From Lophium mytilinum (lineage: Eukaryota): a stretch of DNA of 64,000 nt. Below, in pieces: positions 4,173-63,028 of this stretch. A model generated the notes under the pieces. The model saw nothing but the letters and a program-made list of their open reading frames with translations. It was not told the DNA's origin and searched no databases. Made by a program: the position numbers and the translations under genes. Each line of letters opens with the position of its first letter. Position 1 is the first letter of the stretch. Where the stretch lies: the NCBI GenBank assembly GCA_010093605.1, contig MU004181.1, forward strand, positions 3,286,001-3,350,000, read 5' to 3'.

Positions 4173-6549
4173 ATGGTTTCATGGGCATTCTTGTCTCAGG
4201 GCCACGCCCGGCGTTGGACTCTACTCCTTCTTACGACTGTATTCTTAAAAGGTGTTTATGGAGAGGTAATTACACCACCGAAATCCCAACAAGCATCTCA
4301 ATTGCGACTCTGTGCTGACAGGATTGAATCGCCGCTCTAGAAACGTATCTTGAAGCAAGACCCTCACTATCCCAACCTTTCTCCGCTCGCAGGAAATAAA
4401 CCAGCTAAATTCGACCCGCCCCGTGATTCCCTCGAAGAGCTCCGCCATGCGCTCGAGACGATGCAGAGCGATTACTTCAAGATATGGCTTGGCAAATGGC
4501 CCGACGCCATTGACTGGACCGCCGCTGTCATGGGAACCCACATGTCTGCCGCCCTTTACTCTCTCACTCGATCCCTGGAATACAGCATGCCGGGCACAAA
4601 GAAAGAGGGTCAGCGCGTAGAGAACGAGATCAATAAATACTTCTCGCAGGCCATCACATACTTTTTCGGGGAGGACCACTTCGCCATCCGAACTCAGGCC
4701 TACGATGTAAGTAAGGTCAGGGTCAGCATACCAGTAAGGTCAGGGTCAGCATACCAGAGCCCTCTTGTGTCAAGTTTTTCTCAGTGCCACTAGAGCGCGT
4801 ACTTAGACATGACTCGAGTCGCGTTGCGGCAACTTCCTAGGTCGTCACGCTGCGCATGAAACAGGTGGCCTACTGAGAAAGTATTCTGTCTTGCGTAGGA
4901 TATACCTGTCTGCCGCTGCTTGTGGTGTTTCTATGCATTTCCAAGACTTCAAACGAGAGAAAAATCTCGGGCTTGGGTTGAAGCACTTGAAACAGTGGCA
5001 GACAGGTGTACACACGACCGCACAAGACAGAATTCTTGCTGAGTGTGCCACCTTTTTCATGTCTGGGGTGGTCATGTCAAAAGGCTTCTATCATCCGGCC
5101 TGGAACATCTGTTGAGCTATTCCTTGAACAGATTAACCCAGTGTCTTGGACATGATCTAAGTGGCCGAAGAGGGAAACTCACACTAGAGGATCTAGTATC
5201 TGTCCTACTTCCCCCTCTTTGTAAACACTAGTATGCATACTAACATTGTGAAGGATATGCTATGGGTTGTTCTCGGCTGGCTCGAGAACATACGGTTCAT
5301 TGGGGAGCACAATTCGCTGCATTATCCTGCAAAGAGTGACTCAAACGGTGAATCGCAGTGGTATGGAAAACAGTTCGAGGACGCGTTCGCCCACCGCGCT
5401 CGTGTTTTCTACGATCTAGCTAAGAAAGGCTGGGACACGAAGGAGTGCGGCGGAGGCATGACATGGGACCCACACGAGAAAACCTACAAGAACGCCATCA
5501 CGAACGAGCTGTTCATCGCTGCCAGTATCGGCATGTATCTACATTTCCCGGGCGACTCCAACTGCTCCCCCTTCATGTCCATGGACGACGGATCTGACGA
5601 CGGATCTGACGACGGATCTGACGACGAGGCCCGAATCGTCGAAGAAGGCGACGGAGTGTGCAAGTCGCCTAACAAACCAGCCCCAGCCCACGACCCCGTC
5701 TATCTCAAATTCGCCGTGGACGGATACAAATGGCTGAAAAACTCTAACATGACCAACGCAAAGGGCCTCTATGTCGACGGCTTCCACGTGACCAACGGCA
5801 AATGCGATAAACGCAACGAAATGGTCTACACCTATAACCAAGGCGTCCTACTGTCCGGCCTGCGCGGATTATGGGAAGGAACAGGCAACCTTACCTACCT
5901 TGACGACGGCCACAAGCTCGTTCGCGATGTGATCCGCGCCACTGGATGGAAGCCGGGCCACGGCTTGATAGATAAACGCAAGGAGTCGTGGGCCGGTCTC
6001 GGGAGGGACGGTATCCTCACCGAGAACTGCGACGCCGCTGGCACCTGCTCTCAGAACAGCCAGACTTTCAAGGGCATCTTCTTCCACCACTTGACTCTCT
6101 TCTGCAAGCCCCTGCCCCTGTCGCCCCTAATTCCCGGCAAAACTCACTCCGCAAGCAAGACGGATGCTATGCTCCATCGCCAGAGCTGCAAAGAATACGC
6201 GCCATGGGTGGCGCGCAACGCACAAGCGGCATTGCAAACAAGGAAGGATGGCAGGTTCGGTGGGTGGTGGGCGCCGAGTAATGAGACAGCTGAAGCACTT
6301 CCGGATAAGGCAGTCGACTATCGCAACCGGCTAGAGAGAAAACGCGACGTGTATGAGCTTACCGATGTCCAACTTGCCGCCATGCAAAAGAAGAAAACAA
6401 ACCATCGTGCTCAGAAATTGAAGCCACGAGGTGGGGAGGACGAGGACCTGAATGATAGGGGCCTCGGCCGGACGGTTGAGACGCAGGGCGGGGGCGTCGC
6501 CGTCGTTCGGGCGATGTGGGAGTTTGTGAACATGTACAATCAAGATTAA
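4173..6549 (+). CDS. Glycoside hydrolase family 76 (alpha-1,6-mannanase/Dfg5-like family), 3 exons
   Basis: Exons 4173-4265, 4341-4706 and 5254-6549 join in frame, giving AYD|DMLW (GH76 YDD motif), CGGGMTW, YKNAITNEL, YTYNQG and FKGIF. Hydrophobic N-terminus. Confidence 0.92.
4707..5253 (+). other. Unusually long (547 nt), highly self-complementary spliceosomal intron
   Basis: GTAAGT donor at 4707, TACTAAC branch near 5238-5244, AAG acceptor ending 5253. Nested inverted repeats 4742-4811/5151-5206 and 4855-4958/4965-5061. Confidence 0.88.
4710..4757 (+). repeat. Perfect 23-bp tandem duplication at the intron 5' end
   Basis: AGTAAGGTCAGGGTCAGCATACC twice, followed by AG. Confidence 0.95.
5584..5625 (+). 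repeat. Coding 12-bp minisatellite (DDGS x3) in GH76
   Basis: GACGACGGATCT three times plus GACGAC. Confidence 0.9.
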
Positions 6550-7294
6550 CGTGCTGTTTTGGGAATACGTTGGTTGGAAGGCGTAATAATAGGGTTTATA
6601 CAGTACCAGGTCATATTTTTGAAAACATGGATACTCTACTGCTCTGGCTCCACCCTTACTTTCTTGACGCCACTGTCAGGAATGCCCTGGCCAACATGCC
6701 TATAGTCGATCAAAAGGTAGTCTAATTTCCACCGGGCTGACCAAAATTGCATCTAGAGTTTCGAAAGCATTTTGGGGTGCCCCAAGATTTTCAAGGGTCG
6801 CCCGAAATGTAGTTACGCCATGTAATCGCCGTCCATCTAACTCGCCTTGACATGCAGCTATCTTGGTACTGATGACTTCCCCGACTCCGAGTGAGACGTC
6901 AAGCCCAGTGAGTCAGTACTCTTATCTAGTGTTATTAGTTCCTTTGTGGAGACTCAGTCTGGTCTAATAAAGCTGTGTTTTCACTCCATATCTGATCTTA
7001 GCATCGTTCGTATCGCATATCGAGTATACGAAGCCCGATCCGGGCTAGCTCGATCCGCTTTTATTGGCCAAATTACTCCCCCTCGCCAGATTCCGAGGAC
7101 TGGAACGTAGCTATAAGACACAAGCCTCCTGAACCGGACTTTCGATTGCTCCGGATACGATTGAGCGGGATCCGCGGGCTGCTTTGCTGCTGCGCTGAGC
7201 GAGTATATATAAAGACCGGCAACGAAGGAGAGACAGAAGTATCTCATCCTCAACCTCCTCTCCAAGTACAACCGTAAGATCCCCAACCACACCA

Positions 7295-19941: not shown

Positions 19942-20606
19942 GATGGGGCACTGTTGTATGGGGCGGAGAGATGTGGGGTGGAGGTATTGAAGATGATTGG
20001 GTTGTATGTATGAGATGATATCTATTTAGAGGGTTTTTGGCATCGCTGAAGCGAGGTCGAGGTGCCCCTGGCTGCTTCATCAGTGTTGGGAGCTCTGGTG
20101 AAATCGACGGGCTGGGTTCGACGCTCTGGTTCTAGGGATGAGGAAATGGGCGGAATCGCACTCTTAGGCAAAAGAGAGGTAGTACGAAACAACTCTTCAC
20201 TTTGAAGCACTTGAAAGCACTCTAGACTCCACACATTTGTTAGCGGCCAAGAACTACCTCATCGGGACAACCGAAAAGACAACACTCACGTACAATCCGT
20301 CTCACACAGCTACGAAGCCCACACGCAGCATGTTCATCATCTTCAAAGCCTTTTTATTTCTACAAGCCCGACTAAGCGTTAGAGTCAGGTTCTAAGTATG
20401 ATACAGATACAGATCGATCGCTCCCATCGCCCAAACCCCCGCCCTCCTCCGAATCGCGACTGGAGGAACATGAGTGGAATTAGCCTTTCCTGTGACGATG
20501 CAAAACAAAGAGAACGAAAAGAGACGGGTGGTGTTTCCGAATAACCGACCGACTATGCTGGGAACCGCGTATGTACAGAGCACGCACCCGCTTGAAAGCG
20601 GACGTC

Positions 20607-23383: not shown

Positions 23384-24328
23384 TGTCGGATAGAGAGGAA
23401 GGGCGAGGGAGGGAGAGTGGAAGAGGTGGCTATAGGCGTAGGAGGCAGACCATCAACAGCAGAATGGAGGCGTGTTGGGCGAGATGGCGAAATGGCGATG
23501 GTCTAGCAGTGGTGGACAGCTTCGAGCCAAATAATCATGACGCCTGGGCCGTGTGTTTTGGGCCGGCAGGTCCCTTGAACAGAAAGTGGTAGTCGTCGAA
23601 TTTTGTGAATGTACTGTAAAGGCCCGTATGCTTTAGATATAGACTCACTTAGCCTTGTGTACATTGGCCTAGCATCACTTGGGGTCCCTTGATACCCTTT
23701 CAGAAAATGTAAAGTGCCAGTCCCTTGAGAGCTGATAGCTTTTTGGCTTCCTCATATGACTGCCACTTGATTGACGGAGCCCGGCCCGCCGGTCTCCGGG
23801 TCACGTGTTGACGCTCTCGATCACTTCAGATGTGGCATGAACCTTTTCAAATTTTCGTATAGACGCGTGCAATCCTGTAGTCCTCTAATGATGCAGTATT
23901 CAGTCAGAGAACCTAGGAGGACGGACAGTAGCTTCACATCTGCGCAGCTTTTGGGGTACAACATCATTGCATGTTATTTGCAGAGATCTAATATCCACAC
24001 GCTACCACCCGAATCTAATGGCAGAGAATGAAAGCACAGGTATTATACATCATTTGGAGAGTTCCAATTAACCTTGATCTTCCGCCCTGGAGATCTTAGA
24101 TAGCCACTGTTTTGCCCGCCTCTCCCAATCGTTCCCGACGCCGACTCGAAAATGCAGCAAGAAAATACGCAAACGACAGAAAGTACTAACACAGTAATGT
24201 ACAGTGATTGGAGATGCATATGTACGAAGGTAGGGGAACTGCTAGAGGAATTGAAGCGGAATCAAAAGTATTCGTACGACCGACATAGGCTCCTGTTTTG
24301 CTCCAATGTATTACTTGCCCATCTATAC

Positions 24329-28726: not shown

Positions 28727-30017
28727 CACGCGGGTGACACGTTAAGCGATACACTAAAAAATGCCGCCCCCACTAAAAATCATTATTTCTCTATAAAAAT
28801 ACAGCCAAATTAATGCTAATTTAAAAGCCAGTTATTGCGCCGTCCATCTTAATTACTATCCTTAGCCGCCGGGGCATAGAATTTACCCATTTATTAATAA
28901 AATTAGTTAAAACCTTATTCTATCCCTCTTAGAATAATTCTCTTATAGTATTCTTATTCTAGTAAGAGAACTTTTTAATATACTACTTAGGCGGCTACTA
29001 ATAGTTCTTAATTAGAGCTAGATCTAGTAAAGAAGTATAGTTAAAGTAGTACTCTAAGTAATTTTATTCTTTCTAGGTCTAAATAATATTACTTTTCCCT
29101 ATACTATAGCCGCTATCTCTATCCTCTTCTAGAATAAAGTTATTACCTCTTTAAATCTAAGGCTTTATAAAAGGCTCTAGAATATAGTCTTAATAGACCT
29201 AGAGAGTTATCTTTCTATTTAAATTAGAGGGAATATTATAGAATAAGAGAGGACTCTTAAAATTCTACCCGGTAGCAGCCTAAGAATGCAGCCTTTTTTA
29301 AGCATTCTTAACTATTCTATTATTAGTCTCTTAAATATAATTAGCGTAGTATCTTTAGCCTAGTTTTCTAATAATTTAAAGCTTTTCTTAGGGTTTAATA
29401 CCCTAGTAAACCTTATTAAAGAACCTAACCTAGTACTAGTTCTCTAGCTCTAGGTACTTTCTAAGTATATACTATGCCTATTTCTTTTAGTAATTTACTA
29501 TAGATTTATTTATCTATTCTTTCTAGCAGGTAATATACTTATAATAGGCTATAGTACCTATTACGCGTAAAATAGTCCTACTAGAGTACTCTAGGCTAAT
29601 TTTATAGCCTAGCTACTTCTAGGTTATTACTTTTACTTTAAAGCCATCTAATTTTATAACCTTTTTAAGCTCTCTTATCTTTTTTAGAGTAATAATATGC
29701 TTTAAGCCTCTTCTCTCCTCTATATCTAGGTTATTATAGTACCTTCTTAGGTTATCTTTAAGCATTAAATAGCCCCGGGCATAGAAGATATTAAAATAGC
29801 AGAAAATAGCCTTATTCTCCCCTATAATCCCTTTTAATTTATTATATTTAATAGCCCCTTAAACCTTAGCCTTAGTTAGTGTCTTCTAGTCCTTATAGCG
29901 GGCGTTGGCAGCGTTGTTAGCTATTATAGTGGGTGGTAAATAGGTAGAGATAGTAGTATGGGCGGATTTTTAGTGGGGGCGGCATTTTAGTATATCGCTT
30001 AACGTGTCACCCGCGTG
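28727..30017 (-). mobile_element. RIP-inactivated Tc1/mariner-superfamily DNA transposon (DD37E), ~1.29 kb
   Basis: TIRs of ~55 bp (28727-28781 / 29965-30017). AT- and TpA-rich interior. Minus-strand relic reads VRFFNKVY*G (from VRFSDEVHWG), LEEDRDSG and LLDLALIKNY* (from SPDLAPIENCW), with many TAG/TAA stops. CCTGT on both flanks. Confidence 0.92.
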
Positions 30018-37430: not shown

Positions 37431-40126
37431 ATGTCGCATAACGTGTGTGTTACAGCGGGGTTCTGCATCTTCCATACGATACCTCTTTCTAGGGCTCTCT
37501 CTTTCCGGGACGAAGTGATGACGATTTGCATGAGCGGGGTTGCCCTTTTTTGACCTTGTTCGTAGGGTGGATGAAGTGGTCTTTGTGGAGGGGAGGCGTG
37601 TGGAAATACCATTTCGTGGTAATCATTCTTGCTCCAAGCTGGTATCTCCTGCGATTGCAACGGTTAGTACATTGCTTGATGGAGAGGAAAAACTCGGCCG
37701 TGGATTTGTATGCAATGCATCATGGTTCTGGATTACTCTCCCCTTCGGTTCAGCCTATGCGAGTGTGCTCGTTGCGTACCTCAACTTCTTAGGGATTGGC
37801 AATCTGTTGGACTAAATTGCTTTCTGATGGATCACCGATTACTAACAAGCTAGGGGAGGGCCATACTTTACGGTCATTTGTTTTGACAGTTCACCTAGCC
37901 GTAGACTGCAAGCCCTGAGGTATTCCCGCGAGACTTGACTCCCCCGCACTCTAGGACCTCGAGCCCCTTGTTCATCCCCACTCCACAGACTTCAGATACG
38001 AGCTGCCTCAGACACCTCCTGCGAGACTCGAGATCTTCTCCCGAAGCTCAAACACCCCCACCTCGTGTGTAAGCTTGTATTCTGTGGATCACCCTTCGAC
38101 AAAGCCCACCATCTGTGCCAGCAGACATGTACCTAGGTAGTTGCCCAAGCTGATCGTCAGCCTTCTGTCAGCCCAATCGGCTTTACCTGGAATTTGAAGA
38201 GATAGATACACCTGTAGACATAGTGACAACGCATCCAGCCATCCATACCGTAAGTTTACTTCAATCGTTCTGTGATCAAGGGGTTTGATTGAGCTGACAG
38301 CCCTATGGAAGATCCGCCCCATAAAGCCTCTATGTCTTGAGTTTACCAATTATATACGTAATATCTACCTCACAGAGCGAAATCTAAACAACGATTAGTC
38401 ATGTCTGCCCGTATACCCCTCAAGAGACGAGTGATATCGCTGGGTATTTGGAGCTTTGAAGTCGTCAAAGCTTGACTGGATTGTGTTGCTAGTGTAACAC
38501 TGCGTCATGCAGCGCAAGTAGCCCAGGTGAGGGATTGATTGCCAGCTATAATACATGAACGGAATCCGGTAGGTTTTACTCCATAGGCGGTACTTAGAAC
38601 TCCTGATTGTAAGTAAGGTTTTGGAATCGCTCCCTACATAGTACAAACTCATATCAGAAGTTACGGCGTCGGCGCTGCGGGAACATAACAGCTGTTATCT
38701 TGGGAGGGCCGTATGAGATTGAGAAAGAACTAGAGACTATTACCGCGACTCAGACTACGTTCAGCGATGCTGTTTCTGCCTCTCAAGGCGAGAACAGAGC
38801 TCGGTAGAATGGGGCAGCTTTGATGCTTTTATTAAATTATGAAGTAAGAAATCACAGAGTTTTGCAGTCTAATCTTGGGATTGAATTTCTCTTCCACGGT
38901 TCTAGAAAGAGGATAGTGCATTTTCATTTGGGGTTCGATATATTATGGATGGTTCTCAGTAGCTAGAAAAGATGCAACTCTTGGTGCCAATGGATCGGAC
39001 AGTCTCATAACAGTGCTTCAAGCTCGTATCAATACACTTTAGCAGTATCAGAGACTAAGAAGCACAACTAGAAGGATCACGTGATGGTGGCAATTGACGC
39101 TAGTAAATGATCCTCTAGATAGATCCCTCTCCTTTGCCGTTCACCCCGCCAAGCTCAAATGCTAGCAGTAGGTCTCTTTGAGCAAGCTAGAGAGTAACTC
39201 AGCCGTCTCGGACAGCGCCCGGCCACCGTCTGAGAAAACCTCGCGATTGAGCGATGGATCGACTAGCTACAGATGTTTATCTGTACCGCGTGACTCTAAC
39301 AATGGTATCTTAGACGCAGAGATTCAGGAGATATCTGGCTTGCTGAGCAACGTGTGCTTTGTAGTATGCATGACGGAGAGCTAGCGGAAGGGATGCATGA
39401 ATTGAATGATGATTTGTTTGATTGGATGGAGTGCAGTACTTCGTATGAAAGGTTGAACAACTTACGGACATAATGTAATCAAGATATCATTACACGCAAA
39501 AGTATTCATTGAAGTCAGAAGATTCCCTATAAAAGGTGTTTCCAGAGTAGTTTGACGCGTCAACCCTATCACGCGGGGCATGAGAAAGGTGGCACCCTCT
39601 TCTTACTTTTGTACCCCTGCTTGTGGTGCTTCAATGCATTTTCAAGATAACAAAGGTGATAGAAACTCTTAACGTTTGGCTACGTGAATATTTGTTAAGA
39701 TACTCCAGGCAGTGGCAGACCGGAGCACCTTCTGTACGAAGTACAATAGCCATAAGAGAGCGTGGAAGATAAGTGGCAATAGAAATTGGCAGTCTATAAA
39801 TTTCTAAGCTTTACCTATTACTTGTACGCTTGTTTAGCACCTTTAGAGGTCCTCCAGTATGCTATTTCTACTCATGAAATACCAGCTTTGGCAAGCCTGA
39901 TAGCTCTTCGGGCGACCTCAGACAGTGTTGAACTGCTGTAGTGTGTCACTCTTTTGCTGCCCAGGTATTAATTGTGGTTTGACGCGTCAGCCCTAGGTAT
40001 CAAGCCGCTGCACAGCCTCACCGGTATGACGAGCATCCTAAGACGCTCTTGAACAGCTCCCTTCCCAGCACAGCTTCACTCAACTCCCCCCTCCAAATCA
40101 CCTTCCAATCAAACTAAACCACCAAA

Positions 40127-50721: not shown

Positions 50722-53700
50722 TCAAACATATCTAAGTCTAGGATCGATTGTCTCCTGAGGCTCGTTGTCCGAAGCGTCGTTTGGATTTGTAGGATCTGAG
50801 CGCGACCCTTGGGCAGAATCGTGGAAGTCGCCCTGGGAGATGCCATATATATTCGCTGGATCCATACTCGCCTCTGGGGCAAAGCAGTCGATGTAGTCTG
50901 CCTGCGCGGTGTATTGGGGAAACGTTGTAGGTAGAAAATCAATAGGTACTTGACTATCTGCTGGTCGCTGTTGAAGTCCTGGCCCATATGTCTTGTAACA
51001 ACGAATCCAACCCTTCAAATGGATGGTGGCGAGGAACTGTCGCTCTGGCGAAAGACCGTTTGCAACAGTCTCGAAATCTTGCTTAAAGCTAAAATCAATG
51101 CGTTCTCCAGTTGAAACAGTGTTGGGGTATATGTCGTTGAGTAAATCTCCGTGCGATTTGAGATAAGCGTAGAATTCGTACCACACGTCACATGTGAAAG
51201 TTTTCAGCTCCGCTTGTGGAAGTGTTTCCGTGAGTTTAAGGAAAACGTTCATGAATTGGCGAATAGAAATGAGAGCAGTTTTTGTCAAGGTATCGTGGCT
51301 CGCCCCCGGTCTAGTTTGATCGGGGTCTTGACTCGATGGCATCTCGCAGGCGCCTTGAGTGGCCCGAGCATGGGGAATTTGCTCTCCAATAGGCCATGGC
51401 ATGTCATAACCTAGAGTGTGCTCTCCATCGCGAAGGTCTTGATCGCGTCCAAGATCTGAAAATGGGTGGGATTGTAGACCCGGTCTGGCGGCGTTATCGC
51501 TGAGTCCTGGGAGTACCACTTCGGGCTGCGACTCTTGTTGAAAGAGAACAGCTTGATCTTGGTCTTCTGCCTGAGAGATAGCAGTAGGAGTCCTCATTGG
51601 TTGGCCGTGAGGTAAGGCCTGAGGGACGACACGCAGTTTGACATTTGGGAACCCATTGCCTAGAGCTGAGATTAGCATGAAAGGCTTCCAGAAACCAGCT
51701 TGACTTGCAAGACTTCCGACTTACGTGGGTCTGGTATTCGATGCACATGCGGGTAGAGCCTTGTGTAAAGATCTTCCCAATGAACAAGGACATCCTTACG
51801 CCTGGGTTGCGGACGGGTGCCTTGGCACTGGGGTCGCTTGTGTCTTCCGTCCCACTCCATCTGGTCTACCACCAGTATCTTGCATTGTTTACAATACTGA
51901 GGTACGATCAATCCGCGGTTTTCCAGGTAAGTCTTATGAGACTTGAGATGCCGTCGTAAGTCCGACATAGTCTTCGCTAGGTACCCACCGATGCAATCGC
52001 GCTCATCCTGCTGAACATTTTCAAGTTCTTCATACTTGTGCACTGGGCAAGCGAAAGTTGCTTTCTCAGTATCACCTCCTTTTGATGGGAGTGCTTTCAG
52101 CTTCTTCTGTGTGCCGTCGTCTTCGCCTTCGGAATCTTCACGTTCGAATCCTCGAGATCGTTTGCCGATGCTACGTTGGCTCGAAACCCTAGTTCCGGAC
52201 TGTCCGGAATTTGTAGATATTCCGGTCTCTGTAGGTTTTGTAGCTACAGGTGAGGTGTTTGATGAAACCCCACGAGCTGCCTGCTTGACATGATCCTGAG
52301 TCAAATGGGAGCCGAGGCCAGCCAGATCGAAATTGTTCGGAGTTCTCAGGGGCTGCCCAGACGTCAATTGACTCTGGCAGCCTGCACGTTGCCTAGCAAA
52401 GTCGATATCTGCTAGGACGCATTTTCCATGCGAAATTGCGGCCCCTAGACCTGGGCTTCTGTGAAGGGCTAACCGGAGGAAGGCATTAGGATCCAGAGAA
52501 TTCTGGGATCTGACTCGGGGAAGTTCGAAGGCAATCGAGGGTGCTGGTGCATGGGTTGAGACATCGAAGCGATGGGTTCGTTGGGCAAACGGGCGAGTGC
52601 CTTGATCTGGGCGGCCCAGTGCGCGAGAAAACGCGGAGGCGTCCACATTGTCTTCACTGATTGCAAGATTAGATTAGTACGGACTAAGTGTTTGTATCTA
52701 GGATCTTACAATTTGAAGTTAAGGACTTGAACAGAGGCGTCCCACCGCCGGAAGCATTTATTGACAAGAGATGGGTCCCGGACGGAGTGGAGCTGGCTCA
52801 CGAGATAGTCGAAACTTTTACTAGCATCGTCTGTGTCCTTCTGCATTGAACTTATGTGTTCCGTAGACTTTGGATTTCGTTCTATTCGAGCCTGGTTAGG
52901 ACTCCGGTTCCTATGTTCTTGACTCATAGCGTCAGGTGGCTGTGTCGCTGGAAGGCGACTTTCTGAGTCAATTTGACCTTTTTCTCGGACGGGGAGCCTT
53001 AGCTGATAGGAGAACGCTGAAAGAGGCCCAGATAATTTCCCAAACTTGGTGGTAAGTTGGTCCTTATCATCGTGGCCGAAGTGACGTGGGCGCTCACTAG
53101 GAGATGCCTCCATCCATTGAGACATAGTCAAACCATTCTCAAAGTGAGTGGCGATATGTTGAACCCTTTGAAGCCAGGTTTCGAAGGATAAATCACAAAA
53201 TCCACATGTTCGGGGAAAATCCGCGACATAATCAACCTGTGATGCCCTGATAAGCTTTGACCGAGGATCGCCGTAGCCACTATGGCCGTTGTCGATGTGC
53301 AAACCAAGTTGATCCTGACGATGAGTGATGAATGCCTCATGGATGGAAGACGGGCAAAGAACGCATATCCAGACTTGTTGCGGGTATCTGATCTCCTCGT
53401 GCTGCTTGAAGTCATCTTTGCGCTTTGAGCTGGCTCCGCATCCTGAAGTGCATTGGTATTTCCCCTCGGCCGACGTGTGATGATTGATTTCTTTCGGGCA
53501 TTTGCTCAACGCCTCTGCAGCGTAGCGCTCCACTCGGTGTAATCTCTCTTCTCGTGTCCATTCACTGAATCGATCATCATTCCAATATGGGGTTGTAACT
53601 TCAGGTTCCAGCGTGTTTGGAGGAGATGAGGTGCGAGTATAAAATCCTGTTTCTTCGGCCTGAGGCAAGCTACCGTAAGTTGAATCGCGAGACTCGCTTG

Positions 53701-54202
53701 GGTGGGAGCTCAATTGAGTCAAGTGGGTGCTTGGAGGGGTCGATTCTATGAATCCGCGACCTGGCGAATCGACTCTGGGGCGTTTGCTTCGCGCGTGCCG
53801 GTAGTTGGCTTCGTCCACATTCCCCGTACTCGAGGGTGTTGCGTCGGAGGATCCATGACGGCGGCAGCGCGTTGGGGTGTGAGAGCTACCAAAAAACAAT
53901 GTCAGCAGAGGGAAAGACGTAAAAGTCAACAGGGTGGATTACATGAGAAGAGATCTGCTCGGAAACGTAGAAGAGCACCCGTCGCAATCATACCGTACTC
54001 TCTTAGGGTGGGTATGGTCTGGTTCCGCTTCAGTGGGCTGAGCACATTGCTCACTTACGCTCCTGTAGAGCTTGACACGGCCCCGAGGCTTGGAACCACG
54101 GTTAGCATTTGGTACACGGTTAGGAATGGAGTAGACGCTCACCCGGCTGAAAGACACATGGGCGGCCCTCGGCACGTAAGGCATGCAGGCAAAGCTGAAC
54201 AA
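50722..54202 (-). CDS. Large multi-exon hypothetical protein with C2H2-like zinc fingers (5' end uncertain)
   Basis: ORFs 52706-53929, 51672-52646 and 50722-51678 join in frame via GTAAGA..CAG (52709-52657) and GTAAGT..AG (~51724-51666). A further intron lies at ~53886-53942. Motifs: YQCTSGC..FKQHE, WICVLC, CGFC..HIATHF, FACPVHK..RRHLKSH. Confidence 0.6.
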
Positions 54203-54549
54203 GGCGGGAAACGCCTTTGGAGCCTTGGAGCGAGGAAAAAGTACAATAAGTCGACCCTGGGGGCTCTGTTGGACCCCAAACCTCTCCGGGAGAGCTTCCT
54301 ATCGCAATCTTCGTCCGTTCGAAAAGTGAGATATCTCAATAAGTGGGCGAAATGTACGTCCTCTCTAACGGCAAGGCTGAAACAATACTGAAGAAGCTTA
54401 CGCATGTACTATAAATTTAAAAATATTGGAACGATGAAGAGGAAGGGAAGGGGAGAATGCGATTCCGGGGAGAAGAGCCCGGAAAAGGGCCCATCCCCCT
54501 CCCAAACTACACGAGAGACCAAGCGGTCAAGGGCGGATGTCGTGTTGTT

Positions 54550-54588
54550 GAGATGCTGAGATGCAGAGATGCAGAGATACAGAGATGC
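54550..54588. repeat. 8-bp microsatellite (GAGATGCA) x~5
   Basis: gagatgct gagatgca gagatgca gagataca gagatgc. Confidence 0.85.
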
Positions 54589-56158
54589 CCCAGCACAGCC
54601 ACAGTAACTCTCTTGCTCCTAGGTATGCCGATCACCGGGCATAACGAAGGGCAAGCCACCAACAGCAAGCAAGGAGACCAACAGATCTCTCAAACATCGC
54701 TCTCCAGATGTGTAACCGTCGTTTTCAAAAAACAATTCTTCAAGAAAATAATCATATCGTCCAAGAATGAATATGAACCCTGGACTGCGGGAGGCTGACT
54801 TTCTAGCACCGTTTCGGCTATACCGATAGCGCTTCGTATAGCTCACGACAGACCTCCCCGGAGACATGCACGACGATCAACAGCGACACAAACACCGTCG
54901 TCATTCCGGCTTTTCTATACCTGCGCAATGCCGCAGCTACTCTTCACCCCAGGAGCGCGAGCAATTTGGTACGCACTGGCTCACAGGCCTTTCGCCAACC
55001 AAAAACGCGACCGAGCGAGTGAGACCACGGCGGCTAAGCTTGATGCCACGGACGACAAGACCGCGATTGAAGGAATGAGCGCACGAACAGCACCGTACAG
55101 TACAGCACCGTCGCATTAAGTCCTCTTCTTGATCGAGTATGATTATATGGGAAGTTCGGACTTGAAGAAATGACAACCAGGATTCGATCAAAACAAACCT
55201 TTCCAAGCGCTACGGAGTGTCGACATCTATATCCAGCTATCTCCAGGAGTCGATCTCATACCGCCAAAGGCCGCGTGGTCGATAAAATCAAGGAGATTTT
55301 GAGCATCATCGAGTACCTACCCGAAGATGACGACACATATCTGATGCGAACGATCAAAGCCTAGTTCTAACGCGCCGAGAATGTGCCGCCTATGGGGAAG
55401 ATAGTTCGTCTGGCTACACACTTCCGAGATGCCAGTCTTCCAATGCGACGTTTACCGAGGTACGTTACTCTGTGCTTCAACATGAACAGCGCTGACCAGA
55501 CAAAGCCAGTTGACCCGGACTTGAAAATCGAAACCTCCTAGTGCATCGTTGCAATGTTCATAAAGCTTTTCATAGTCCGCAAAATTCACGGAATGTCGAG
55601 TCCCTCTCCCAATATCGCAAGAGCGTAGTTGGTACGCAATTGGAGAATAGTACGTCGCACCCGAAAGCGTGTTAGGTCGGAAAGGATGATAAAGAGTTGA
55701 GCGTCCCAGACTTGAAATTGGGAGTCGTAGCCGTTGCTACCGGCGTTGGTGTTGGTATGGGTTGACCATTCATCTTGCGGCGATTGGTCTCGCGATCGAC
55801 AGTGGCATGGTGGCCCTGGTTGGAGTACTTGAGACGGTCTTATCTTGTATGCCCAAGTAACGATGGCCTTTTGATAAGGAACAATGGTGTAGATGGGTGT
55901 TGGATGAAAGAGGAGAGTTTGATCAGGTTAGATGACGGCGTGACTCGTCACTCGTCGCACGTGGCAGGACATCATGGTGCTCCGTGTTCATAAAATGTTT
56001 CAAGCGCATCATTCCAGGGGTTCCTTTGGTGCATGTTCCATGTTTGAAAATGATTAGTAGGATAAGATCCTTGCTTCATGGAAGGGCCCCGTTTGTATGA
56101 CTCCACTAAAGGTCCAATTGGTTCCAGTATCTTTTGGACCCCCTACAGCCATAGCATT

Positions 56159-57130
56159 GAAGGACGCCTAACGGTCGTAAACACGGTTCAGATCATAGTT
56201 CAGACGAGGACTTGATTTCCGTGGTGAGAATCATTAGATTGCTCTCCAAAAACCACACCGCGTCAAAGCACTTCTAACGTTGGTGTCGAAGACGCAAGTC
56301 CTAGCTTCGGTAAGCTCGATCCTAAAGGTAAAGGCCCTCGCACCTTTTCCCAAGTCTTTCATACAACGTCGGAGGACGTCTAACAGCAGGAAGCAAAGGT
56401 TTCCGAAATAGCAAAGAAGCAGCTTGATTCAGGACGTGAAAACCATATCATCGCTTTCAAGGACTTCATGCCGCACTGAAGACCTTCTAACCTTGGTAAA
56501 CAGAGGTGGAGATATGCATCAGGCATCGGCCTGGCTCACAGCATGCTGATTGCTACATTGGTTTTAGATATATCACACAATCTTGAAGCACCTCTACTAG
56601 TGGCATGCAGGTGCCCGAGTTGCAGCCTATACGGAGGCTTGATTCACAGCGGTATGCCAGTTACATCGTCCCCGATTCATTCTTAGGATCTGGAAGGACC
56701 TCAAGCGGCAACAAACGAGCGTCCAGAGGACGTCTAATGCGACAGCCTGATTCAGGGCGTGCGAAGTTCAACATTGGTCGTGAAACTTTTAGGAGGTATC
56801 AAAGGACCTCTAACGGTACTATAGGCATGTTACATTAACAGCTTGAATGTAAACTTGGTACATGATGTAGCAACTTTGATATTATTTTCATTCCAGCCAT
56901 AGGTTGCTGGAGGACCTTTAGCATACAGCTAGAGTGCGAGCTTGATTTACGACATGATAGCCTTGACATCATCTCTCAAATATTATACCACACTAAAGGC
57001 TTCCTGACAGTACCAAACAAGCATCAAAACCAGAGTTTCTCAGCCCCTCTAATTCAGACTGTGTCGATTCTGACATCCTACTGGCAATTTTCGTGCAGCG
57101 CCAACGGACTTCCAACAGCATCAAGCCGAT
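56159..57130. repeat. Degenerate tandem array, ~107-bp period, ~10 units
   Basis: AGGACCTCTAAC-like motif at 56161, 56267, 56373, 56480, 56587, 56695, 56803, 56911, 56997 and 57105. Second motif CTTGATTC at about +50 in most units. Confidence 0.8.
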
Positions 57131-57244
57131 GTCAACTTCGTGTTAATGTTCTTACCAATATCATGTTCACGCCTAACAACATGTTTCTGTCTTAAGATAT
57201 ACCCACGCTATGCTGCATGTTCCATCACGATTGACACACGCTTC

Positions 57245-57610
57245 CGCCTCAAGATTGAGCTACGCCATGCCCGCATCATCTATCATTACTACTAATAACG
57301 ACACCTTGACATACCCCATTCCTGCTTCAAGATCGAACTACCCAACGTCTACATGATCCACCATTACGGCCAACAGCCTCGACGCAAAGGCCCTTCTCTC
57401 GTCACAAGATCGAACTACACTTTACCCGATCATCCACCATTACTACCAACAAGGTCGACTTAACGTGCCCCGTTCTTGGTTCAAGATTGAACTACCCCAC
57501 GCCTACACAATCCACCATTACGACCCACAGCCTTGGCGCAAAGGCCCTCCTCTCGTCTCAAGGTCGAATTACCCTATGCCCGCATAAACCACCATTACCA
57601 ACAAAACCCT
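57245..57610. repeat. 77-bp tandem array (5 units) with A/B dimer higher-order structure
   Basis: CAAGATYGAACTAC-like starts at 57250, 57328, 57405, 57482 and 57559. Shared ATCCACCATTAC-like block; CGCAAAGGCCCT only in units 2 and 4. Confidence 0.9.
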
Positions 57611-57648
57611 CCACCCAACCGCCCCAAAAACTACATAATCCCCTCTCC

Positions 57649-58383
57649 TCACAAAAACTCAAACCCCCTCCTCGCCTCCGCCTCTCTCACCCCCAAAACC
57701 TCAAAAACCCCCCTTCCCCCCTCCTCTCCCTCCTCATCTTCCCCCTCTTCTCCACCCCCTTCCCCCCCTCTTTCCTCACCCAGCCCCAACCTCGCCCTCC
57801 TCCTCGCCCTCAACACCCTCGCCTCCTCGGGGCTCACATCCTCCTTCCCACTCCCCTTACTATCCCTCCGTGGCCTCTTCCTATACCGCTCCCTCAGCAC
57901 GCTAGTCAACTGGTCCACCGGCTGCGTCTCCCGCCACTCTCCCCCTTCATCCTCACTAAGCACCGAAAGCGGGCCCTGCGGCTCGGGATGGCGGAGCGAA
58001 AGGGGGTCGAGCGAGCTGACGTCTCGCGGGGGAACAAAGCGCGGAAACGGGGACGCTTGCGGGGGTTCTGGTGCTTCGCAGGCCGGGAGCGTGGGCGAAG
58101 CGGACGACGACGAGGTGCGTGGTGGTGACGGTGATGGCGACGGTGACGGTGATGGCGTTGGAGGCGGAGGGGTGATGGCGCGGCGGATGTAAGTGCGATG
58201 CGTGCGGATTTTGGGCATTCTGTTGGCATTCGGGCGCGGAGCGTTGTCTTTTCGCTTGCTTTTGGTGGTTTGAGACGCGCGAGTGGTAGGGGGGCGGCGG
58301 GCACGCTGTCCAGCAGCGATGCGGGCGTTTTCTGCGGCTTCGAGGGCGCGGAGGGACAGCTTGGGGCTTGGTCTTAGGCGCAT
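57649..58383 (-). CDS. Hypothetical low-complexity (Pro/Ser, Arg/Glu/Gly-rich) protein
   Basis: Open frame from AAAATG at 58383 (MRLRPSPKLSLRALEAAENA). No domain recognised; the ORF may partly reflect base skew. Confidence 0.4.
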   Translation of the reverse strand: MRLRPSPKLSLRALEAAENARIAAGQRARRPPTTRASQTTKSKRKDNAPRPNANRMPKIRTHRTYIRRAITPPPPTPSPSPSPSPSPPRTSSSSASPTLPACEAPEPPQASPFPRFVPPRDVSSLDPLSLRHPEPQGPLSVLSEDEGGEWRETQPVDQLTSVLRERYRKRPRRDSKGSGKEDVSPEEARVLRARRRARLGLGEERGGEGGGEEGEDEEGEEGGRGVFEVLGVREAEARRGFEFL

Positions 58384-59168
58384 TTTCGCGGGTATTGGTG
58401 GATTTGAGAGGTTTATGGTAGCGCTGACGTGGTAGAGAAAGGGTACTTGCTGCTTCTTCTGGTGGTGGTGATGATGATGAATATGGTGGTGATGAGGATG
58501 AAGAGGAAATGTGGTTGAGCGTGAGGATGAGGAAGATATAGAAACAGTCACAATAGCATGGAAACAATAGGAAACAACAATAGAGACACAATAGAGGCAT
58601 TCTGACTATGTATGGGGGGTGTCATAGTGAAGTGGTGAGTATCAATGGTCCGAGCGTTGACACGGGGCTCGGTTTGCTTGCTTCTTGTCACAACAATATT
58701 CAGATGGAAAGACCCTTTACTTGACATAAGGAAATAATGAGACTAGTAGTCTGTGACTTTAACTTCCATTATACCCAAGCAAACCGTCGTAGTTCCCTTT
58801 AGAAGTGGGCATGCAAACCTCTCCTGATGGCCGTTGACGATTGCTCGCCGCCGTTTGAAGCCCGTCAGTACCTTGATGAAGAATCATATGGGATGTAATG
58901 TCCTCTCACGCCTATGTTGGGATCGGCGTCTGCATGCTCTTGAGCGACTACTTACTCAATGAGGCGGCTTCGGCCATGTTTTCCGACAGGCAAGAAAGGG
59001 GCAATATTGAAGCAGGTTAAGCAAACCTACGACAGTGACAAGCGAGCTACAGCAAGTTTGGTCGGCTTTTTCGAAGCAGGAAAGGCCCTTGAAGCACTTC
59101 TAGCAGCACGCAGGGTTCACCTTATCAGCACAATGATAGATATCTGCCTAACGCATTGCTTGGAGAGT

Positions 59169-62100
59169 CTAGTCTCTATCCGGATCTTGGACTGGTTTGG
59201 CACCTGCGCATGATTAGCATCGCTGCGTCTGACATCGGCATTATAGTCACAGTAGAACTTACCTAAGACCCATCCCAAGCCACTGGCCAAGCCGCCAGTC
59301 ACAGCACTCGCCACCATGTCCCGTTTACGAACTCTCCCACCTTCGTCACTCCCTGCAAAACTCCCAGCTTCACTTCCCAGATCTGATGACATTCGAGCAT
59401 GGCCGCTGTCGCCACGATTGGCCCCCGTAGCGCTATCGGTGTTGACACTCGCACCTCTGAGCGGGAACGCACTCCTTGAGAAAGCCGCCGCGGCACCTCT
59501 TGCAACATCAAACAGTCCCATTGGCGTCTCCTCAACAGCCCCTCGGCCGACTTCTCTTCGAGGCTGGATAGCGACAGCCTCTGTGAAAGCTCCTGGTAGT
59601 TTCTGATCGGCTCGATCATTAAAGCGCAGCTCAGCTTCATTCTCCTGGGCTAGTAGCGTCGTCATCTCTTCTTCGCATTCTTGCCAGACACCAAGCACCT
59701 CTGGCAGGTTAGCCGGGGGCGCTAGAAGCAGCGCTTGACTGAGCAACTCCATTCGTTGCTCCAGTCTTCGCAAGATTGGAGGCGCGGTCGATCCGGCGGA
59801 GTTGTACGAGCCCGACATTGGTGAAGAGCGATGGCGTCCTGCGAGAAAAGCAGCGCGCCACGAGAGATCGTCTTCGTCTTTCTTCTGGCGACTAGACGTC
59901 AGGTAGTCGACGGCGATGGAAGGTCTCCTATCCATGGAAGGTCGCCTACTATCCGTCGGTGTGAGGGGTGACAGAGGCCCTATAGGCGACATCGGCGTCG
60001 CCGGCGTTCCTGGTGTTGAAGGAGTCCCAAAATAATTCGGGGGCGATAGACGGTTGACGACGTACGAGTAAGCAGTCTCAAAGTCATCTTCTGCAAGGGC
60101 AGCCTCGATGGCCATGCCAATGACTCGTCTTTCTGCAGTGTTCTTGCGTCGACTCGATTCGGTGGGAGTAAGATCCATGACAAGGTCAGGCGCGGCTCCG
60201 GAAACTCTAGAGGGTGTTGCAATGACCAAATTTTGGCCGATTGAGATAAAATCATCAAGATGGGTATAGCTGCGTGGATTCTGGTCCAAGACCTTCTCCA
60301 ACAGCGTAAGTGGGTCGAGACTAGCCCGGATCATGACGGGTTTGAACGGAACGCCATGCTGAAGAGTCAAAGAATAGAAAGATAATGCATGTGTCGCAGA
60401 GATGAGAGCCTTGCTTCTCTGAAACATGGAAGAATTTGGAAAATATTTGTCGAACGTCGAAATGATATCGGCAGCCTTCTTCATGCCCCCTCTAGTTCGA
60501 TTCCCATTGCTGGCGTTGTCGTAGTGGGCCATGGCAGCTGTGATGATCACGGTTTCGATTTCTTCCAATGAAAGACGGTGATACGGAGTTGCGCTGATGT
60601 ATATCTTGACGGCGAGTGTGTGGCGACCCGTGTCTAAGAAAGCTCGTAGGATTTCTCTCTCGAAGACTCCCCTCTCTACTTTCCCAAACACTCCTGCTCC
60701 GAACAACGCGCCATTCTCATCGACATCGATTCCCCAGTTCCACAGCCAAAGTAGTCGATCCCTCACTAGTGACCATTGTTCATCATCTTTCTGGGGCCCG
60801 GTGGTTAATCCGTGCAACACCTTCTGAAGCGTGCCAAATTGCTCGTCATCGGTCTTGTGGAAGCGCATTTTTGCAACGTTCATTATGGATATATTATAAC
60901 TTAAACCACCGAAATTGTAAGCCGAGTATACAAACATCTGCAGAAGGCAAAATGTTTGCACCTCCGGCTTTGTTAGCGGATTATCGGCACGAAGGAGCAC
61001 GTCTTTTTGAAAAAGAGTAGCGGATGTTTCTTGTAAGATCGGGGAGGCCGTATCGATCTTTGGTAATAGCTCGACAGTGGTTGCTAGGCCTGGGGGTGGC
61101 TCAAAGTCCATGAGCGTTGCTAATCGAACTAAGAGCGAATGTGCTCCTTCGATGGTCTCTGGAGTATTGGCCTCAACTGAATATGCACTTGCGAGAGCTG
61201 ACTGAGCATATCGGATCTCGAGTCGCCGCTGTGTTTCCTCTTCGAGGTATTGATGACCCTCGTCATAGCCTCCCAGATCCGCGTCACTTGGCCCATCCCA
61301 GTCTTCTATGGCCCCCGTCACGAGAGGAAAGTCATTGGTAGCGGTATGAACGAACCATGCGAATAGACATTCCCAGTCTTCATCAGACTCTGGTACGGGT
61401 TCTTCAGGAGATGAGCTGGTGCGTTGTGTGACTGTACTGGTCTGGTTGTCTGCTACTGACGACTCTCGCCTGCCAGTATTTAATCTCCGCCTTTTCCTAT
61501 CGTTATACCCATACATCCACGGGCCCACAAGTCCCCTCAAATCCCTCCCTGTTTGTGGAGCTGTTCTCTTGTCCGCGACGGGCTTCTGGGTGGGAGACAG
61601 GAACATATCGACAACTTTTGGGGCCCTCATTTGGCCGAATTCCTGCAAGGTAGGAATCGCACTGTGGGGATAGTACTCGTAGCCGTACCGAAGTAAGGGC
61701 AGAATTGAGGATATGAACCAAGTTCTCAAGTATTCGGAGTGTCGAAGAAAGGGCACAATGAGCTGTGGGACCAGTTCCAATAGGCCTGTCTCCGCATCAA
61801 TGCGATGGGCTCGGTGGACGAGGAAAGACGTGAGTATGTCTTCCGGCGTATCGGGCGTGTAGGAGGAATGAGCCAGTTGGAGCAGGTGCAGTTTGTGTAC
61901 TCCTTTCCGTGCTATCCTCTCTGACAGGTCCGCGACCGGGGAGATGTCAAGAGGGGTAGCATTGTCCTGCCCTTCTGAGTATATTCTTGACGCCGTTTCG
62001 TGGACGAAGGTGGTGTATAAGGTAGGTTCCGTGCTCTCGGGAAGGTAACTAAGTATGATCCTAAGTGTAAGCTGAGGATTGAAGGCGTCTTTCCGGGATA

Positions 62101-62197
62101 TCGTTAATGTGCGGAGGGCGGTGATGTTGGCTTCCGTGGCATATTGCACCGCAAGGAGGACGATTCGAGGCACGGAGAGCCTCGCAGCTTCAGCCAT
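59169..62197 (-). CDS. SEC39: Sec39 (Dsl1 tethering complex subunit)
   Basis: LRIILSYLPES, RAHRIDAETG, YDNASNGNRTRGGMKKA, HALSFYSLTLQHGVPF, RVRKRDMV..GLASGLGWVLG. Terminal intron ~59203-59262, then GAKPVQDPDRD*. Confidence 0.92.
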
Positions 62198-63028
62198 GGA
62201 CAACGATCTGAGGCAGGATTACTGGGAAGAGTGGTGGGGCATGTCGTGAGGAGAGAGGCCACATAGGTGGAGAGCGGTGTCGATAATGGAGCTTGATGGA
62301 TTTCTTGGGCGCGTTCTAGGTTCGTGATGCGCGCTGGCTTACTAGCGTCTGACGTTTTAGCTATGTGGGGTGAACACTGCTCATTGCGCTGCGGTGCGCC
62401 TGGGCGCCACTAGATAGCCAATCTGATCTGCCTCATCGATCACGTTCGATTTGAATGCTGTAATTTCACCTATCAAGGGCAGATTGATATAAGTCCCTCA
62501 GATGCGAATTCCACAACAGATGTTGTAGATATAAGTTGGAAAGATTTGAAGGGCTCCATGAGACATTTCGACATCAGAATTGATTTTAGTCACGAGGTTA
62601 AGCAATCAGATGCTTGTTTTTGTTGTGTTCTGAGGGAATGAATCCAATCCCCTTCAACGGACCCTCTATCTCAGAGCCAATTCATTACAAACATGCTATG
62701 CTAAACTCAGGTATGCACCTACAACGCCAACGCTTGCGCCGAATGCAGTGAAGAGAAAGAAGAAAGGCCAGCGATACCGCGCCTTCGTCTGCCTGCAAAC
62801 GATATCTGGAACGTCATGGAAAAGGAGTGAAGTAAGAGCCGTCAGGGATGAAACAGAAATCCACAAATCCCTCGCGGGCATGGAAAGCGAAAAGAAGGAA
62901 ACACAGGAAAGAGAGTCATCTGTACATAAACCCGCCTTGCAGGTTGTCGTCGCAACTCCTCTAATCTGGCATCGGTTTCAACGTGGTGCTGCTCACACCT
63001 TACCTCTGAAATCTTTCACCACAACATC

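Follow-up and report, generated by a model that had tools for sequence, protein, structure and literature searches.

The array and its neighbors

The window, by which we mean the whole 64,000-nucleotide stretch of the Lophium mytilinum genome analyzed here, contains an array of ten ~30-nt cores flanked on both sides by transcribed DNA (Table 1). The transcript to its left is read from the + strand, ends just before the array and matched no Pfam family in the one frame searched; the RNA contig that contains it is not one transcript, because the contig also takes in the − strand gene on that side. The spliced + strand RNA is divergent from a C2H2-like gene. On the other side, the 3′ end of the Sec39 transcript points at the array, so that the array sits between two 3′ ends. 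RNA-run contigs cover 51500–56032, 57243–57655 and 57930–62273 and not the array, a contig gap being no evidence either way. A second, younger tandem array (57250–57598; 77-bp unit, 154-bp dimer) directly follows the 107-bp array, lies under a separate 413-nt RNA contig and has no core motif. Elsewhere in the window we observed a 34-nt inverted repeat at 1812–1949 (94%, arms 70 nt apart), which is unrelated to the families studied here, and a tRNA-Pro called by ARAGORN at 20052–20136, the anticodon of which (GGG) is unusual for a eukaryote and which may be a false call.

Table 1. Positions in the window of the array, the neighboring transcripts and the transposon-related features
Feature	Position	Strand	Basis and details
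CACGC-ended MITE, 225 bp, two cores as an inverted pair	4846..5070	.	flanks GTCGT / GTCAT
CACGC-ended element of 1291 bp whose Tc1-like transposase is interrupted by numerous TAA/TAG stops	28727..30017	-	perfect 5-bp duplication CCTGT
CACGC-ended MITE, long form, ~400 bp, three cores	39570..39964	-	scores 353 bits with a profile built on 9 copies outside the window
RNA contig piece left of the array	54143..56032	+	GT..AG intron 55457-55504
Array of ten ~30-nt cores	56157..57134	+	core spacings and lag-108 periodicity; core starts 56157, 56263, 56369, 56476, 56583, 56691, 56799, 56907, 56993, 57101
Nine box pairs (box 2 TRATTC-like, box 3 TTKACATC-like)	56213..57077	+	genome-wide box pattern; box 2 starts 56213, 56317, 56425, 56532, 56640, 56748, 56856, 56943, 57050, box 3 20 nt after each
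Possible terminal-inverted-repeat remnant of a TA-flanked MITE	56611..56629	+	local alignment; directly after core 5
Short eighth unit	56907..56992	+	21-nt deletion takes the 3′ half of the core; boxes after it intact
Sec39 transcript	57930..62273	-	spliced contig, CT..AC joint 59201-59261; PF08314, E 2e-261
Single module (box 3 and core)	58838..58904	-	in the transcribed Sec39 3′ region

The ten cores are spaced at 106, 106, 107, 107, 108, 108, 108, 86 and 108 nt, exactly as claimed in the first-pass annotation, the register of which placed them at 56161, 56267, 56373, 56480, 56587, 56695, 56803, 56911, 56997 and 57105. The ~107-bp autocorrelation check proposed there was run, and lag 108 came out top of 260 lags, with none of 500 shuffles reaching the array's count; 4-mer matches at lags 106–108 numbered 58, against a mean of 23.9 and a maximum of 36 for the best count at any lag in 500 dinucleotide shuffles. 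Pairwise identity of the array units is 0.29–0.61, and the array had indeed been overlooked by a standard repeat finder, since it is missing from all 43 Tandem Repeats Finder rows. Nor does a long ORF cross it, as had also been noted: no stop-to-stop frame of at least 100 aa spans the array, and one 109-aa frame overlaps its last three units.

Two further blocks had been described and assigned to the core preceding them. Both are present, but they belong to the core downstream, the order in the array being box 2, 14 nt, box 3, 22–24 nt and then the core. Array box positions agree with the genome-wide pattern at 78%, and three of the nine box pairs are among the genome's one-mismatch matches. 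The short unit, for which a deletion of ~21 nt had been proposed, shows a 21-nt gap directly after the 5′ half of its core; this core scores −14.5 bits, and the boxes at 56943 carry one mismatch. We also agree that the array is not a CRISPR: the cores are 0.53–0.62 alike, the linkers are homologous and the genes of the host, a fungus, are spliced.

The proposal that the array is an eroded minus-strand gene for a 36-residue repeat protein draws on the four spacings of 108 nt and on the reversed core, which is readable as LEVL. Against it, there is no codon-position pattern (column identity by position mod 3 is 0.408/0.408/0.413), stops occur in every frame (three 108-nt units have them in all six), and a six-frame search of the array with X at stops returned no Pfam family. 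Moreover, four array spacings are 106–107 nt, homologous modules recur at periods such as 97, 104, 119 and 131, and homologous units lie in both orientations inside non-coding miniature transposons (MITEs), all of which reduces the repeat gene to a negligible prospect. It also appears very improbable that the units are small RNA genes or cassettes for RNA polymerase III, with box 2 serving as the B box. When the listed box-2 copies were compared by eye with the B-box consensus, two of 52 could be taken for a B box on the opposite strand, whereas most misfit that consensus; there were no Rfam matches and no ARAGORN gene within the array, and eight of nine units fold no better than shuffles. What stands of the non-coding option originally offered is thus the kept motifs and spacing, probably as protein-binding sites, and not the small-RNA units.

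The array itself was rejected as a MITE, terminal inverted repeats at its two ends and dispersed copies of the whole unit both having been looked for and not found. The array has no paralogue, and its borders show neither paired terminal repeats nor a target duplication; neither of the two MITE families described below has a terminal repeat convincingly matched around it, and no inverted pair is listed there. A BLAST search of the genome with the array returned the array only (at least one copy), and no match was found among the fetched loci. The possible terminal-repeat remnant reached a local alignment score of 21.8 against a null of 11.3 ± 2.3; it occurs in only one of nine units, and averaged over the array the score does not reach significance (p 0.08–0.27). 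RIP was likewise rejected as the cause of unit divergence, as the array has no RIP signature: its composite index is −0.39, compared with 1.37 for the nearby dead transposon at 28727–30017.

A three-box module shared with miniature transposons

Across the genome, the module reads TRATTC, 14 nt, TTKACATC, 22–23 nt and then the ~30-nt core. Searching for the core with a 25-nt window-derived pattern at up to three mismatches yielded 219 matches, compared with one in the reversed control. Scored with a matrix built from 48 non-window sites, for which no shuffled position reaches 8 bits, nine of the ten array cores obtain 9.9–28.8 bits, the exception being the deleted unit; the 48 sites were found with window-derived patterns and are therefore independent in sequence, not in ascertainment. 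An unselected 400 kb held 21 core matches against 3 in reversed DNA, or ~45 per Mb, seven of them in MITE context, and showed no excess of the 14-nt box pair, from which it follows that the modules are clumped. Blocks 2 and 3 are found upstream of the core also in core copies outside MITEs. A profile derived from 31 non-window modules matched eight of the nine internal box-box-core stretches of the array over 70–85 nt (E 2e-7 to 8e-3) as well as the single module in the Sec39 3′ region (E 3e-7; core 23.1 bits), and six of the nine array stretches were matched in register by a profile of the module lacking the core.

The geometry of the module is reproducible. Exact box pairs lie 14 nt apart in 49 of 68 instances at spacings of 8–22 nt, the control total being 13, and spacings of 13–15 nt account for 52 pairs against two in the control. 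Fifty of these 52 sites were fetched regardless of the core, the other two lying within an already sampled locus, and in 32 of the 50 the best core is 22–23 nt downstream of box 3. All 19 cores of at least 5 bits among the 50 sites lie at that distance, a score attained by none of 3000 control stretches. As the boxes start at 0, 20 and ~51 nt within the module, they would occupy roughly one helix face. Metagenome contigs contained no exact core match, and no Sec39 relative was confirmed among 82 candidates.

The fetched loci contain no fewer than 15 additional arrays built of the core or the module, with periods of 66–225 nt: 66 (12 units), 97 (6 units), 102–108 (several, 2–6 units), 119, 131, 134, 161, 206 and 225. 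Among 13 such periods there is no helical phasing, the resultant never exceeding 0.5 for 10.0–11.0 bp per turn. One array type is a paralogous block on three contigs (L182, L245 and L246 on C1, C9 and C17; 70–75% identity), so that copying has occasionally involved entire arrays; two of the three copies share a sharp-ended 3′ tail, and no terminal repeat was found there. The array at L155:4789–5571 (G000:C5), single-copy in the searches made, consists of twelve cores at a near-exact 66-bp period with boxes 2 and 3 absent, and fills the gap of convergent ORFs from 44 bp past one stop to ~130 bp before the other. At L009:900–1480 (G000:C5), four units of 139–162 bp keep boxes 2 and 3 with a degenerate core and are flanked by two strong cores pointing outwards.

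The core is present in two MITE families, and the complete module in the TA-flanked one. The first family, with CACGC ends, gave 194 terminal-repeat matches and none in the control, has lengths of ~230 and 400 bp and carries its cores as inverted pairs. From 30 loci, of which five lacked a second end within 600 bp and two were duplicates, 23 distinct complete copies were obtained, and their 5-bp duplications are perfect in 15 and have one mismatch in six more; in place of the TA duplication of a Tc1/mariner MITE, the family thus has a 5-bp one. The inverted core pairs in these elements (L125–L154) are 51 or ~61 (59–62) nt apart in 21 of 22 cases, a step of 10 nt. The second, TA-flanked family is 213–228 bp long and has CAGT-starting ends; TA precedes nine of the 11 ends listed and stands on both flanks of one complete copy. 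These two traits, TA duplication and CAGT-starting terminal repeats, are those of a Tc1/mariner MITE. No autonomous partner of the family was found.

In the TA-flanked MITE the full module directly abuts the terminal repeat, and the distance from box 2 to the element end is 106–107 nt in three of four copies, which equals the array period. The array unit is homologous to this MITE segment, as both contain the shared module; a profile of the MITE arm alone matches just two array stretches, and weakly (E 0.18 and 3.1), and divergence among the array units exceeds that among the MITE copies present today. More decayed arms or modules of both families lie between genes of the window (6712–6809, 1273–1453 and 23655–23692). 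The terminal repeats of both families end in GGCACAC, and the CACGC family's repeat has the word AGTGGCA.AC in common with the core; together, these similarities would fit binding by a transposase.

Four elements of 1.3–1.44 kb, the one at 28727–30017 in the window and three others (L034, L035 and L036), have CACGC ends and perfect 5-bp duplications in four of four complete copies. Their stop-riddled transposases have intact homologues that are Tc1-like (DDE_3, HTH_Tnp_Tc3_2), full-length homologues matching DDE_3 in eight of eight cases, four of them above the cut-off; the broken frames themselves gave no Pfam match. The clade comprises 339 homologue clusters at E ≤ 1e-10. The ends of these elements resemble, and are not identical to, those of the CACGC MITEs, for which the window element is a candidate mover. 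It has no core, the core is absent from all seven transposase-coding elements tested, and a search of 14 PF13358 loci plus the four 5-bp elements turned up no transposase-coding parent with the module.

Divergence of boxes and linkers

Linkers of the 47 modules with perfect boxes are 0.30–0.37 alike, where unrelated DNA would be 0.25, and fall into 39 clusters at a cut of 0.55. Box matches with up to one mismatch number 345 against 61 in the control, and with up to two, 1731 against 1139. Excess matches thereby amount to ~48 without mismatches, 236 with one and 310–580 with two (range by the background used), whereas uniform decay at the linker rate would predict ~48, 510 and 2500; the data fit 72–80% retention and a copy number from one to a few thousand. 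Within the array, between-unit identity is 0.61 for boxes and 0.36 for linkers. The same direction is seen in nine copies of the TA-flanked family (boxes and core 0.76–0.82, linkers 0.60–0.68) and between the paralogous arrays (boxes and cores 0.84, linkers 0.76, p 0.01), in one of which C-to-T changes in the boxes were noted by eye. Further, core identity exceeds upstream identity in ten of ten arrays, the units of which were partly picked by core score; the excess reaches p<0.05 in six arrays and is not significant in four.

Other comparisons count against constraint. In a gapless test, the 60 nt upstream of the core in the array showed heterogeneity no greater than a uniform model (1011/2000). 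The same core positions are kept between arrays when all columns are used (8/3000), a result that weakens to 303/3000 without the motif ends, and private mutations in MITE copies are only weakly fewer in the core (p 0.08 and 0.20). The core scores below 5 bits at 31 of the 50 perfect-box sites, and core columns over all 50 are just 0.33 alike. Cumulatively, the boxes and their spacing have been retained while the linkers drifted towards random, which points to a putative protein-binding site; given the fixed gaps of 14 and 22–23 nt with free linkers, it looks like a composite one.

Origin of the array and the putative binder of the module

At a probability of about one half, we favor the reading that the inner arm of a Tc1/mariner-type miniature transposon was amplified head to tail long ago, and that each unit would be a composite site of three boxes placed roughly on one helix face. 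A protein or complex binding these boxes would keep them and their spacing while the linkers drift towards random, and this binder would more likely be a host DNA-binding factor, used by the elements as a helper, than the transposase itself. We infer all three parts, tandem amplification from the arm, protein binding and the identity of the binder. The homology between unit and MITE segment and the matching arm length argue for the inner-arm origin, the direction from MITE to array being the presumed one. A core common to families with different ends and target duplications and absent from the coding elements would favor a host factor over a transposase. Candidates for the binder among domesticated transposases comprise eight PF01498 matches, six of them with internal stops.

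The array could, alternatively, be a dead relic in which the boxes are inner transposase sites of extinct Tc1-like families, their conservation stems from mobility and the array itself decays neutrally. The module abutting the terminal repeat in the TA-flanked MITE, the short word common to the core and the CACGC family's repeat, the array type that moved as a block and the many decayed cores are all consistent with this. Yet the 39 clusters among 47 modules would then require very many source families, our searches turned up just one copy each of the window array and the 66-bp array, and none of the seven transposase-coding elements has the core. In addition, inner and terminal sites are similar to each other in IR-DR elements described to date, whereas boxes 2 and 3 are unlike the terminal sites. 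Tc1 elements are described, in the portion of one account bearing on them, as having two or three inner binding repeats (PMC4120734), which adds to the case for a relic; on balance we regard this origin as unlikely, though worth keeping in view. In that same portion, members of the IR-DR Tc1 group (Bari, Sleeping Beauty, Minos) have conserved stretches inside their ends at set distances from the terminus, as here (PMC4120734); unlike them, the elements studied here have terminal repeats of ~28 bp and inner boxes mostly unlike these, and the transposase-coding elements found are without the boxes.

The order of events might also be reversed, with a chromosomal cis-element of the host (an insulator, a terminator or roadblock, a replication or a cohesin site) having come first and been captured by MITEs, and with the arrays as selected multi-site platforms. 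Speaking for such a history are a geometry held constant across dozens of unlinked loci where the linkers are nearly random, the further arrays with their different periods, the lack of a RIP signature in the window array, its position between two 3′ ends and the core density of the unselected sample. Against it stand the lack of a clear bias in gene context or in orientation towards 3′ ends of genes (7 convergent, 7 tandem and 4 divergent among 18 clusters, judged by eye from rough ORF calls), the lack of helical phasing in the array periods, and modules that are clumped and often decayed. We also consider this order of events unlikely. It is rather unlikely that the module is an ~80-bp composite cis-element with three helically aligned boxes and about a thousand copies, bound by a host complex, with unrelated MITEs hitch-hiking on it and intergenic arrays acting as working platforms that might, for example, stop or insulate converging transcription.

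The first-pass annotation had held that a hit to a known transposable element would remove the novelty of the array, and with the unit corresponding to a MITE inner arm and belonging to a genome-wide family, part of that novelty is lost. Tandem repeats born of MITEs are known and are usually homogeneous and without internal constraint, and mimp and Guest are fungal Tc1/mariner MITEs comparable to the families studied here. In alpha satellite, the CENP-B box is a short box kept in diverging monomers of near-constant length, and it has a transposon connection; by comparison, our array is not centromeric as far as seen, shows no homogenization and has three boxes. The case of Xenopus, as far as the relevant excerpt of its description goes, is close: for Xstir and for the miDNA4 satellite, one sequence is found both inside a MITE and as free tandem arrays that lack terminal repeats, and miDNA4 is likewise of Tc1/mariner type (PMC12628747). 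The arrays described here differ in being short (2–12 units), mostly single-copy and of many periods, in having units that are 30–60% alike and yet hold three boxes at fixed distances, and in a core common to two MITE families. The EFT MITEs of Epichloe are similarly non-coding, with lengths of 200–420 bp, terminal repeats of 25–40 bp and TA flanks such as one family here possesses; their table, and the accompanying text in the sections that concern them, has no family with 5-bp duplications and no mention of a shared internal module or derived arrays (PMC3227409). The three-box module, and fungal Tc1-like elements with 5-bp duplications, were without description in the literature searched, a body to which subscription journals and Repbase do not belong.

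The array is real and non-coding. It belongs to a large family of transposon-linked modules in which constraint on the boxes and their spacing can be measured. Across dozens of unlinked loci and many arrays, its three boxes hold exact distances while the linkers are near random. If a host factor binds them, the module would be a concrete, testable DNA probe for a filamentous-fungal regulator and would show transposons and their host using one site; should it be a relic only, it would nonetheless record a Tc1-like lineage of an unusual kind, with 5-bp duplications.
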